A stretch of DNA of 64,000 nt, from NCBI GenBank assembly GCA_964016885.1, contig OZ024741.1, positions 235,476,001-235,540,000 of the forward strand. Reading direction: 5' to 3'. Position numbers and translations under genes: made by a program. This DNA is from Eledone cirrhosa. Its lineage: Eukaryota. Of this stretch, positions 29,166 through 55,240 are shown one piece after another. Position 1 is the stretch's first letter. The number at the start of each line of letters is the position of its first letter. Below the pieces are notes generated by a model. It saw only the letters and a program-made list of their open reading frames with translations, was not told the DNA's origin and did not search any database.

Positions 29166-29503
29166 AGAAAGTGAGGTTTTTTTTACAAAATGAAAAATAA
29201 CCGAGGTGTCCTACACGAGTGGAAGTATAAAGAAAAAGAGATGAAATCGAAAATGCAACTGAAGTCTTATTTTTTTAAAAAATATATATATATTTATTTG
29301 GTTCCTTTACCGGTTTCGAGCCACTTTTTCCATATAAAACAAGTAACATTTAGAGACCAACCAGATGTGAGAAAAACCATCTCAACTGACCTTTTGAAAA
29401 GCAGAAGAACTGCGAAACCGGTAAAGGAACCAAATAAATATATATATTTTTTAAAAAAATAAGACTTCAGTTGCATTTTCGATTTCATCTCTTTTTCTTT
29501 ATA
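29166..29503. mobile_element. PLE-like fold-back insertion in (TA)n, arms 29226-29318 / 29413-29503
   Basis: ~92-bp near-perfect inverted repeat, flanked on both sides by (TA)n; carries the HHR at 29390. Confidence 0.85.
29390..29427 (+). ncRNA. Hammerhead ribozyme, U3-A8 core variant
   Basis: cctt-TTGAAAA-gcag[aagaa]ctgc-GAAA-ccgg-TA-aagg; palindromic stem III ACCGGT. Confidence 0.75.
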
Positions 29504-30081
29504 TATATATATATATATATATATATATATATATGGCAGAAGAAAAGGTGGTTATGCGTGCATGTTAAGCTGTAACTTCATGGGGATAAGCCAGTCCGAG
29601 TAATCCAAAAGCACTTCATGTGAGTAGTTTATCCCAGCTAAAAGTTGGTTATTAGGAGTGATGGAGTATTCATTTATCGAATGAAAGTAGTTAAGATGGG
29701 GTTACTTCACCATAAATATCTTTATTGGATAATATATATTTCTGTTACATGGTTATACATGTGACTTCATCAGATGCTCATACAATCATTGGTGCAGTTA
29801 TGCAATCATGGGGATATGTCACTGGTCAGGTATTATCATCCTTTTGTGATGTATATGTTTTGAGTGTATATGTTTATGTATGAGTGTGTGTATGCATGTC
29901 TCCACATGTGCGTTTGTGTGTGTATATACATACTCACACACGCACATACATACACACATACAGATTGAGTGCTTCCAAAATACTACTTTACTCAGCTCCA
30001 AGTACTTGTCTAGGTTTGTAGATTCTTCATAGTACTATATATATATATATATATATATATATATATATATATATATATATA

Positions 30082-30326
30082 CGAGGTGTGTCAGAAAAGT
30101 TCCAGGAGACATGTATATAAAATTATGAAGAAGACATGTATATAAAATATGTCAGAAGACATGTATATAAAATTATGAAGAAAAAAGTTTGATCACTGCA
30201 GAGAGCTAAGATTACAGTTACATACTCCAGGGGGATTATTTTGAAGGAGAAAACTCTTAGTGTGAAGTTTGGGTTTGAAATAAATCTTTTGTGACATCAG
30301 TCCTGGAACTTTTCTGACACACCTCG
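30082..30326 (+). mobile_element. Internally deleted Tc1/mariner element (MITE)
   Basis: Perfect 26-bp TIRs CGAGGTGTGTCAGAAAAGTTCCAGGA, flanked by TA; GGGGATTATTTTGAAGGA (GDYFEG) resembles a mariner transposase C-terminus. Confidence 0.88.
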
Positions 30327-30346
30327 TATATATATATATATATATA

Positions 30347-30604
30347 TAATTGTTTGTACTTTTGGCACAAGGCCAGCAACTACCCAGTACATTACTGCTA
30401 CTTTATTTTATCGACCTCGTAAGGATGAAAGGCAAAGTTAACCTCAGCGGGATTTGAACTCAGATCGTAAAGGGACGTAACTGTGCTGGAAATATATAAT
30501 TGTTTCTACGTTAGGCACAAGGCCAGCAATTACCCAGTGCATTACTGGTACTTTATTTTATCGACCCCCGTAATGATGAAAGGCAAAGTCACCCTTGGCG
30601 GGAA
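30347..30604 (-). mobile_element. Two tandem SINE family A copies (30347-30490, 30497-30604)
   Basis: Reverse complements of the 27267 SINE. Confidence 0.85.
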
Positions 30605-30819
30605 TATATAATGAAGGATAATGAAGGAAGTGTGGTAAGGAACTAGGTGGACCATAACACACCAGAGTACTCGATACTTGGGGTAGTAGAGTGGGTCCTG
30701 ACTCTTTTCCTATATATATATAAATGAAGTATTGCCGTAGGAAAGGTAAAAGAAAAGAGAGTGCTCTATGTAGGCTACAGAGCTTTTTAGTTATGTAATA
30801 AACAACATAAGATAATTAT

Positions 30820-52099: not shown

Positions 52100-52528
52100 T
52101 GCAACTGCCGCATTAAAAATAAATGTCCTCTCAACAACCATTGTCTTGATAAAAACTTAATTTATGAATGTAAAGTTATAACTAGCACCAATTCCTTCAC
52201 CTATTTTGGCTCCACTTCCACCTCTTTTAAAGCTCGTCTCTATAATCATCATTCATCTTTTAAATACAAACTTAAAAGAACCAACACGGCTCTCTCAGAA
52301 CTCATATGGTCCTTGAAAGACAAAAACATTAAATATACCATCTTTTGGAAGAAGGTTTATTCTGCGTCCTCATACTTGAACAGCTCTCTATCTAAAATCT
52401 ATAATCTCTGCCTAAATGAAAAATTTACCATTATCTCTAATCTAGATTCTATAATAAATAGACGTACAGATTTGTTTTCTATCTGCCTGCATAAATTCCA
52501 TAGGACTTTTCACAAAGTATACAGCTAA
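52100..52528 (+). pseudogene. PLE C-terminal GIY-YIG endonuclease, 5'-truncated (mirror copy 51474-51902 on -)
   Basis: CNCRIKNKCPLNNHCLDKNLIYECKV...TYFGSTSTSFKARLYNHHSSF...LSELIWSLK...I(C/Y)NLCLNEK...NRRTDLFSICLH; open frame without RT. Confidence 0.88.
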
Positions 52529-53752
52529 TATTCAATTCTTTATCAATTTAGAATCTTTTCTCAAAGGCACATATACACACACCTCTTTAAATTATACCCA
52601 TCTTCCTACCTTACTTCAAAGGGCATTATACACTCTATAATACTTGTTTACTCATTACCCTCATTCTATCTTCACCTTGTAAAATCCTTCATAACATATA
52701 CATTTGTTTTTTTTGACGTTAGAATATTCATCCGCAATTATTTTTTTTTTTTTTTCTCTCCATCATCAAACTTTTTAATCTCAATACATTAACTCCCTCT
52801 CCTTCTTTTGACGCTAGAATATTCATTCTTAATACATATTAACTCTTTCTTCGCACATATTATCAATTCCTTCAATATACAAACCTTAACTTCACATTAT
52901 TTTTCTCAAATCATCTAATACACAAACCTTAATAATTTTTTAATACATATTAACTCTTTCTTCGCACATATTATCAATTCCTTCAATATACAAACTTTAA
53001 CTTCACATTATTTTTCTCAAATCCTTCAACACGCAAACCTTAATAATTTTTTCTCTTCATTAATTTTGAAATTGCCATAATACTTATAAACATACACCTT
53101 TTTGACGTTAGAATATTCATCCGCAATTATTATTTTTTCTCTCTATCTTCAAACTTTTTAATCTCAATTTTTAATCTCAACACATATCAACTCCCTCTCT
53201 TTCCTCGTACATATTTTTTCCCTTCGTTAATTTTCAAATTCTTTTAATTTATACATTATCTTCCAACGGTTCTCAACCTCTCTATGTAAAACAATATATC
53301 TTTTCTCAGTTACAAAAACTATCTCTTTCTCTCTATCACCCATCTCTCCCTCTCCACCTTCACTCTCATCTCCTCCCCTTTTTTCATCCTTTCCACCACC
53401 CCTCTCTAAATAAAATTTTTTTTTTCCCTTGTACATATTTTTCCCTTCGTTAATTTTCAAATTCTTTTAATTTATACATTATCTTCCAACGGTTTTCAAC
53501 CTCTCTATGTAAAACAATATATCTTCTCTCAGTTATAAAAACTATCTCTTTCTCTCTATCACCCATTTCTCCCACTCCACCTTCACTCTCATCTCCTCCC
53601 CTTTTTTCATCCTTTCCACCGCCCCCGCCCCCCCCTCTCTAAATAAAATATTTTTCCCAATATCACACATCAATCTAAAACTACTTTTCATATGTTGATT
53701 TAAAACTGCACTATCCACAAGTGTTTTTTAGCCTTCATATCATGTTCTCCTG

Positions 53753-53819
53753 TTTTATCTGATGAAAACACAAATATTATTGCATGATGATGTTTGTTTT
53801 TGAAATGCGCATAATAAAA
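53753..53819 (+). ncRNA. Type I hammerhead ribozyme
   Basis: ttttat-CTGATGA-aaacacaaatatt..gatgtttgttttt-GAAA-tgcgca-TA-ataaaa; palindromic stem III ATGCGCAT. Confidence 0.82.
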
Positions 53820-54258
53820 TACATGGAACTCCTTTAACCATCTTTTGATCTTATATATTATATATATATATATATATATATATATATATATATATATATA
53901 TAGCTAACAAGCTTGAAACTAGTACAGCGTTCCTTTGTCAGTGTTGAACAAACGACCAACGGTGGTTGCTAGACAGTACGGCTTAATACGGGATGTTTGT
54001 TTACAAACACACCGAGCATTATAATAAATGTTTGGTGAATCCATACGTACATATATATATGTGTGCATGTATATATATATTCATACTACTGTACGTCTGT
54101 ATACATATATGTATGTACGTGTACATACTTATATATATATATATATATATATATATATATATATATATATATATATATATATATATATATATATATATAT
54201 ATATATATATATATATATATATATATATATATATATAATATATATATATATATATATA

Positions 54259-55240
54259 TGCAAAAGTTTTATTTAAAATTGTTGGGTTACAACAAGTAAA
54301 TATTTTATAACTGATATAAAGCACTCGACAAGTTTTTGGAGTAGATATACGGTATTACACAAATGGAAACTATATTTATAAAACCATATTTATTTCATTA
54401 TACATATTTCAGGGATACCATATTAAAAATATGGCATGCCTTCGTCAGATAAAATACAATATATAAACATATTATATATCTATGTCTCATTCATGAATAT
54501 TGATATTTACATTCTATTATCCATTTCATATGAATTGATAATTCAAATTGATATGACATGACGTAAAGATGTAACTGTATCCTTCTCTCTCTATATATAG
54601 CTCTTTCTCCCCTCTCTTATGCTTATCTTTATATATGATGAAGTATTATGTATCTGTCGCTTTGGTTCTGCCTCTCCTATTTCTCTCTTATTTCTCTCTG
54701 TTTTTTTTTCACTTCCCCTATCTAGTTATATTTTCTCTCTCTCTTTCTTCCCCCCCCTCCTCTCTCTCTCCGTTTTCTCTTTATCTCCATTTTTTTCTTT
54801 TTCTCGTTCTTTCTCTAACTGTGCTTAACACTATAACTAAATAATTACTGCCCTCTCTCTTGAATCTCTCTATTTGTATGGTGAATTATTATTATCTATC
54901 TGTTGCTCTCGGTTGCCTCTCTTTTTTCACCTCACCCTTTTTTCTCTCTCCCCTCTCTCTCTCTATTTTTCTTTACGTCAGTTTCTTCTTTTTCTCCGTC
55001 TTTTTTCTAACTGTGCTTAACACTATAACTAAATAATTATAAACACTTCACTACCAAGGCAGCCTCCTAATTTAATGGTCGCTTATATTATGGTACGTCA
55101 AAATTATTTATAAAACTGTTTATATATTGTATTTTATCTGACGAAGGCATGCCATATTTTTAATATGGTATCCCTGAAATATGTATAATGAAGTAAATAT
55201 GGTTTTATAAATATAGCTTCCATTTGTGTAATATCGTATA
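54259..55240. mobile_element. Fold-back F1 with a long CT-rich spacer; HHRs at 54393-54454 (-) and 55132-55193 (+)
   Basis: Arms ~54345-54469 / 55117-55240, nearly identical to the 46468 copy. Confidence 0.9.

Follow-up and report, generated by a model that had tools for sequence, protein, structure and literature searches.

A 64,000-nucleotide (nt) stretch of the Eledone cirrhosa genome (GenBank assembly GCA_964016885.1, contig OZ024741.1, positions 235,476,001 to 235,540,000, forward strand; hereafter the window) contains fold-back elements set in (TA)n, inverted repeats of which one arm can run on beyond the other. What determines where each arm ends? The initial annotation pointed to a small hairpin at the start of the extension and proposed that it is a recognition or template-boundary signal for a reverse transcriptase (RT), setting priming at the adjacent TA-rich patch. 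Here we report that the fold-backs derive from Penelope-like elements (PLEs) of the Hydra clade and that each of their two kinds of end falls a few bases short of one of two copies of a conserved hairpin. These hairpins likely position the RT so that each end of the cut (TA)n target primes its own cDNA, a reading to which we give a probability of about 0.7. PLEs and telomerase RT are sister groups. Taken by themselves, the inserts are ordinary transposon debris; their ends bear on start-site choice and the one-sided tail in PLEs, of which one element has so far been tested in vitro (PMC11167929; this paper, PMC3846280 and PMC8557442 were available to us in part, and what we say of them refers to those parts).

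By sequence, the fold-backs are Hydra-clade PLEs with hammerheads, truncated at the 5' end and inserted head-to-head in (TA)n: the hammerhead strand gives the RNA sense, in which the 3' ends point outward. The stretch by which one arm outruns the other is the PLE 'tail' already described, with a length here of 60 to about 170 nt. Our sample of the genome comprised 160 evenly spaced 10-kb stretches, 120 loci picked because they resembled pre-tail sequence, and 5 stretches that were targeted, with 10 duplicate loci removed. Arm ends in this sample are bimodal. Among 386 arms from six families, 359 stop at one of two sites, the short or the long; 15 end inside the tail and 12 upstream, the latter mostly through subfamily divergence. 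The two discrete end points are not what randomly placed termini would give.

How are the two kinds of end shared out between the arms of one insert? After removal of six rows (five family B read-throughs and one false hit), 114 pairs were left: 95 short-plus-long, 5 short-plus-short, 2 long-plus-long and 12 with an unclassified arm. Independent ends would give 51, 27 and 24 among the 102 classifiable pairs (p = 2.6e-18). The evenly spaced stretches and the window by themselves hold 41 short-plus-long pairs, none of either other kind and 2 more unclassified. By eye, both long-plus-long inserts (loci L169 and L196) are genuine, and most short-plus-short ones have diverged or interrupted tails. 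The tail of the short-plus-long pairs lies on the left in 50 and on the right in 45. So strict a rule of one short and one long arm points to one complex with two unequal sites.

On the RNA strand the hairpin reads RYUC, an upper stem of 2-5 bp, a loop of 3 to more than 60 nt, a 2-nt bulge on the 3' side starting with U, and GARY, often followed by RCU. Each of the seven hairpins first listed sits where one arm of the inverted repeat continues and the other meets (TA)n. The window has 10 matches to the pattern ACTC-N7-25-TN-GAGT-RC where 0.88 are expected, a number reached by 0 of 100 shuffles, and 2 to its GCTC/GAGC version (0.22 expected; 2 of 100 shuffles). Because both patterns were composed after the motif had been seen, the unbiased test is a scan of tails made without it. 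A scan for asymmetric fold-backs that made no use of the motif gave 259 candidates; artefact filtering kept 83 of those in the evenly spaced stretches. Of 65 tails of at least 50 nt, 36 (13 of 28 clusters) have the start of the strict motif in their first 20 nt, compared with 5 of 65 on the reverse strand, a shuffle mean of 1.4, and 91 of 3200 random positions. Only 1 of 18 tails shorter than 50 nt has it. Across 36 representatives the hairpin covaries by a scripted count, used in place of a MAFFT alignment, which does not follow the hairpin structure. The outer pair is A-U in 17, G-C in 15, U-A in 1, G-U in 1 and unpaired in 2; the third upper pair, never required by the motif, is paired in 26 against 13.2 in shuffles (0 of 20,000 as high); the bulge is UU in 18, UA in 8, UC in 7 and UG in 3. 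The motif is thus kept across families.

This hairpin, which we call HP1, marks the short end. What marks the long end? We inspected 12 ORF (open reading frame) 5' regions: five of family B, two of K, one each of G, C' and F2, and two that were uninformative. All five ORF-bearing families have two hairpins upstream of the ATG, at -162 and -72 in B, -165 and -87 in G, -187 and -111 in C', -182 and -76 in K, and -128 and -38 in F2. The order on the template is hammerhead, TA patch, HP1, tail, TA patch, second hairpin (HP2), 5' untranslated region (UTR), ORF. Short arms stop before HP1 and long arms before HP2, and the tail is the interval between them. The initial annotation was right to place a hairpin near the one-sided extension; it missed HP2, located outside the insert, immediately beyond the long end. 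Both hairpins have clusters of TA-bounded copy ends directly in front of them, apart from HP1 of family K, where no ends were sampled.

The junctions themselves agree with priming at a TA-like patch beside the hairpin. In the 101 with an exact match to the template, the match ends 2-11 nt before a hairpin, and 97 show TA microhomology of 2-6 nt; random cuts give at least 2 nt in 40% of cases within the same 12 nt, or 20% anywhere. Left out of the count were 26 read-throughs, 7 tail variants and 2 ends at -14. Might the patches alone set the ends, by pairing with the (TA)n primer, the hairpins lying nearby by chance and doing another job (ribonucleoprotein assembly, translation or RNA stability)? 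The 12 nt before the hairpins are indeed AT-rich (0.81 against 0.62), runs of alternating TA are slightly longer there (3.2 against 2.2, p = 0.02), and both hairpins lie in the 5' UTR, 38-187 nt upstream of the ATG. A 3-nt alternating patch, however, occurs in 40% of all 12-nt windows of the template, yet just the 15 arms noted above end inside the tail, and the offset stays at 2-11 nt although the tail varies so widely in length. We consider it unlikely that the patches act alone.

Is each arm copied from RNA? A single cDNA primed at the long site could instead fold back, its second-strand synthesis halting at HP1 in DNA, as a stop or an endonuclease resolution signal; the short end would then be a termination point. 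We compared how far upstream the arms reach in the 55 of 94 pairs whose two arms account for the whole insert (39, mostly family D, were excluded). The arms reach equally far in 26, as folding back would have it, and the central spacer is shorter than 20 nt in 34 of 95 pairs. Self-priming and endonuclease resolution have been proposed (PMC3846280, PMC8557442), and tail-dependent DNA cleavage by the Drosophila virilis endonuclease is cited in PMC11167929. In 19 pairs, by contrast, the short arm reaches at least 20 nt further and has template sequence missing from the long arm; the long arm reaches further in 10. Window examples are the fold-back at 54263-55244 and, by reading, the 197-nt ORF spacer of the one at 50062-53866. 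The long end, moreover, is a start under either model and has the same motif at the same offset. The short arm is therefore not always a DNA copy of the long arm, and both were likely copied from RNA; termination after folding back seems to us improbable. An assignment of 54 spacers to arms (17 short, 15 long, 22 unassigned) was noisy and is superseded by this analysis. Most arms continue beyond the point of hammerhead cleavage, so their RNA template had likely not been cut there, as is also the case in vitro for the Anolis element PAc. In symmetric fold-backs the centre recurs at family-specific spots upstream of HP1, at about 180 nt for A1, 151 nt for E and 113 nt for C, and not at the hammerhead cut site.

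The suggestion of a template boundary in the telomerase sense did not survive. On the RNA the hairpin lies 3' of the short end, and long arms are copied straight through HP1; behind a polymerase moving 5'-ward, a hairpin cannot stop that synthesis. Telomerase RNA template-flanking elements and the 3' stem-loops of long and short interspersed nuclear elements (LINEs and SINEs) likewise set an RNA structure beside a short primer-pairing patch. In telomerase, however, the boundary element is positioned 5' of the template, where it halts synthesis, and the stem-loops of LINEs get copied, whereas each hairpin here is found 3' of its start site and is left uncopied by synthesis from that site.

The model that we favour is twin target priming, in which each start would be set by the hairpin behind it together with a short UA patch pairing with the target. 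An RT-endonuclease, probably a dimer, would bind an uncleaved tandem transcript at HP1 and HP2 and would cut both strands within (TA)n. Each 3'-OH would then anneal over 2-6 nt to the UA patch 5' of a hairpin and be extended toward the upstream unit, and the two cDNAs would finally be joined head to head.

Several observations weigh against this account. Recognition of the hairpins by the RT is inferred from sequence, and such data do not tell one RNA template from two. HP2 is known from five families only, A1, A2, D and E not among them; 152 arms have no partner in the fetched DNA, and 136 anchor matches that had diverged from the template were excluded from the junction count. The 36 representatives are related and motif-selected (8 were hand-picked, and 2 clusters were dropped), so the covariation numbers overstate their independence. 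Single hairpins fold weakly (z of -2 or below in 2 of 11 folded stretches, one of the 11 mis-cut), and 15 of the 28 long-tail clusters fail the strict motif test. Both ends are sharp in family E, although what it has is a divergent hairpin and not the canonical motif. Finally, the core CUC/GAG is nearly invariant, so that recognition could be by sequence, or on DNA.

Where might such a hairpin come from? In the Hydra-clade element Penelope-1_SK the hammerhead has stem I actc/gagt and stem III acag/ctgt (PMC8557442, File S2), the letters of HP1 in families A1 and B minus the catalytic core. This spelling may be a lead on origin, and on nothing further. It also fits the notion that the hairpin, with stems I and III plus a bulged UH, serves as substrate for a hammerhead and is cut to produce the RNA ends, and the bulge is U followed by H in 33 of 36 representatives. 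Copy ends, however, fall 5' of the hairpin and not at the bulge, on which ground we rejected cleavage there as their source; the bulge is UG in the other 3, and the hammerhead arms of the elements themselves do not pair with the 3' strand of the hairpin. We regard the substrate reading as very unlikely. More tentatively, and at somewhat less than even odds, the Hydra-clade PLEs from corals to sea cucumbers may share a twice-repeated RNA start signal, perhaps a former hammerhead without its core, that loads both subunits of one RT-endonuclease dimer on a single RNA and primes both ends of a double-strand cut at once. If true, a single rule would account for both the PLE tail and the inverted repeat. 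Its constant distance of a few bases from both start sites, behind which it lies in many families, also makes the hairpin an exact target for mutagenesis.

The motif appears in other species. Among the six Hydra consensi in File S7 of PMC8557442, read by eye, the coral element Hydra-2_Amil shows it clearly, as do two sea-cucumber elements, Hydra-1_Ajap (two copies at the 5' end) and Hydra-2_Ajap (one copy); Hydra-1_Obim has a plausible version and Hydra-1_Crog a divergent one, and the case of Hydra-1_Amil is unclear. In the 584,176 characters of that supplement, six 9-nt terms that stand for the hairpin's 3' strand have 7 occurrences, 4 of them inside these hairpins. The portion of the text available to us describes no hairpin, though it is visible in several of the published consensi.

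How secure is the clade assignment? The element near 50 kb (family B, 50062-53866; long arm left, short arm right; hammerheads at 50189-50257 on the minus and 53752-53820 on the plus strand) carries at 51890-52528 (+) a C-terminal ORF fragment with a CxCX5C linker and a GIY-YIG-type endonuclease, and an inverted copy of it at 51474-51914 (-). The endonuclease fragment has 59,514 first-look candidates in the 3.0-Gb genome. All 150 scored matches are 97-100% identical, so family B is young by this measure, and hence a good substrate for testing. A DNA search with family B returned no match, probably since its words are too common. A full copy at locus L281 has an 821-residue open frame (800 from the ATG, at 3457-5859 of the locus), a single ORF with an RT (YRDD at 357) plus, at the C-terminus, a GIY-YIG-type endonuclease. 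It reads DKT at 123 in place of DKG, as in the Hydra clade, and has the CxCX5C linker at 659 and, near the endonuclease end, CxxC at 759 and CxH at 787; at 37 it reads RWT where the clade has RWK, and related ORFs read RWR or RWK. Pfam gave no significant match to this ORF. The assignment is based on these motifs set against the description in PMC8557442 and on our reading of the published Hydra consensi. That clade of PLEs with a C-terminal endonuclease, which includes Hydra-1_Obim, shares DKT, CxCX5C, CxxC, CxH, the hammerhead and the (TA)n target; it differs in RWK, a unit shorter than 3 kb and a tail of 30-40 bp, against RWT, about 3.7 kb and the longer tail here. Partial tandem pseudo-long terminal repeats (pLTRs) with a hammerhead, an inverted copy and a one-sided tail are present at L281 and L283-L285. 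The PLE origin proposed in the initial annotation is supported.

In the window, 9 minimal type I hammerheads match our own descriptor; a wider descriptor matches 105 times in 1.6 Mb of evenly spaced stretches and twice in reversed sequence. Rfam reported no hammerhead, only repeat-driven microRNA-type matches, every one below the gathering score. Longer copies show the arms of families A, B, G, C', K and F2 running on into Hydra ORFs, which for these rules out a non-LTR retrozyme or a separate non-autonomous family; E and D are not covered by this argument. The C-terminal endonuclease and the hammerhead rule out a Naiad or Chlamys PLE, which has an N-terminal endonuclease and no canonical hammerhead. 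Helitron or Helentron, selenocysteine insertion sequence and kink-turn readings were dropped, given the PLE ORF in the elements and their plain base-paired stems.

Much of this has precedent: earlier papers describe the tail and the inverted copy as well as the targeting of (TA)n and initiation at internal sites. The Adineta PLE Pen2a has an inverted 5'-truncated copy and a one-sided extension, as here, with a 31-bp tail and a self-priming explanation; the part of PMC3846280 seen mentions no conserved structure. For PAc, a Poseidon PLE, both strands are cut and extended in vitro and a dimer is predicted (PMC11167929); two internal RT start sites bound its tail and hammerhead cleavage is dispensable, as would hold here. 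Its starts, however, lie inside the ORF, at an AC-rich stem-loop and with no target homology, whereas those here lie in the 5' UTR, before a repeated conserved hairpin and with TA microhomology. A full-text literature search, whose scope excluded Repbase Hydra sequences and bioRxiv supplements, turned up no publication on a hairpin, conserved or repeated, at the ends of PLEs.

All seven hairpins first listed are present within 1-2 nt. The family A1 insert (F1 in the initial annotation; 40527-40845, head-to-head in (TA)n) has its long, tailed arm on the left, with HP1 at 40587-40610 (-) folding as drawn (ACTC-CAG..CTG-TA-GAGT), and in the short arm on the right a minimal type I hammerhead at 40734-40792 (+). 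HP1 of family B is at 50119-50143 (-). The claim that these two elements have otherwise different arms was overstated: they share hammerhead stem I and spacing, and the RT enclosed by F1-type arms at L087 has 57% identity to the family B one. Family A2 has two fold-backs, one at 46471-46931 (hammerheads 46600-46663 (-) and 46818-46881 (+); HP1 46531-46550 (-), TT bulge) and the one at 54263-55244, whose 626-nt spacer continues the short arm (hammerheads 54392-54455 (-) and 55131-55194 (+); HP1 54323-54342 (-), TC bulge). Another A-type fold-back, 47918-48333, is interrupted at 47983-48072 by a different dispersed repeat (hammerhead 48107-48165 (-); HP1 47937-47957 (-), TC bulge). A variant, GCTC-TGT..ACA-TA-GAGC, at 30972-30994 (-) adjoins a fold-back at 30995-31149. 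The seventh hairpin, 47091-47110 (+), belongs to a family D fold-back with its tail on the right (46985-47160, +); it had been listed at 47089-47112 as of opposite sense, and on the hammerhead strand it has the same sense as the others.

Four copies had been missed: 30669-30692 (-) in a family G tail stub, 30763-30783 in a tailed family C arm (30721-30877, -), 47273-47344 (-), with a 62-nt inner part, in a fold-back with a 129-nt tail (47225-47832), and 62752-62773 in a family D fold-back (62625-62790, +). The shared hairpin claimed for the fold-backs from 29200 on holds at the seven places listed; the family E element at 29165-29503, which stands outside the clade assignment made above and has a U3-A8 hammerhead variant and a 61-nt tail, has only a divergent one. 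Here and in fold-back clusters 21 and 33 a second hairpin type, ACTCGTGT-NNN-ACAC-CTC, stands at the short end, in family E and one short-tail family. Hammerhead cores with a compensatory U3-A8 change (UUGANAA) occur at 29385-29430 and at L083, L036 and L231, with a long stem II in some families.

Other arrangements were also seen. Fold-backs with tails of 30-50 nt (43765-44226 in the window; clusters 15, 19, 20, 21, 24, 44, 66 and 69) are without the bulged hairpin; some of these families have a common CGCT(A/G)TTTC-like word and possibly belong to other PLE clades with a signal of their own. At 30721-31149 the pLTR of one family follows directly on the tail of a related C-type family; this chimeric tandem perhaps arose by template switching. 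At L083 (1167-2351) three 592-nt hammerhead units stand in tandem, retrozyme-like, with the hairpin at the internal junctions. A PLE-like fold-back at 41928-43320 is not of the family B type; it holds a YMDD RT fragment at 42755-43210 (-), a weak match to RVT_1, and has a relative at L238. LINE-type RT elements (RVT_1) at 56625-60087, 38550-40444 and 31776-32713 likewise lie in large inverted pairs by TA runs. The window also holds an 8.3-kb satellite with 44/132-bp periodicity at 1-8497 and a 9.4-kb TGG-rich array at 15430-24858.

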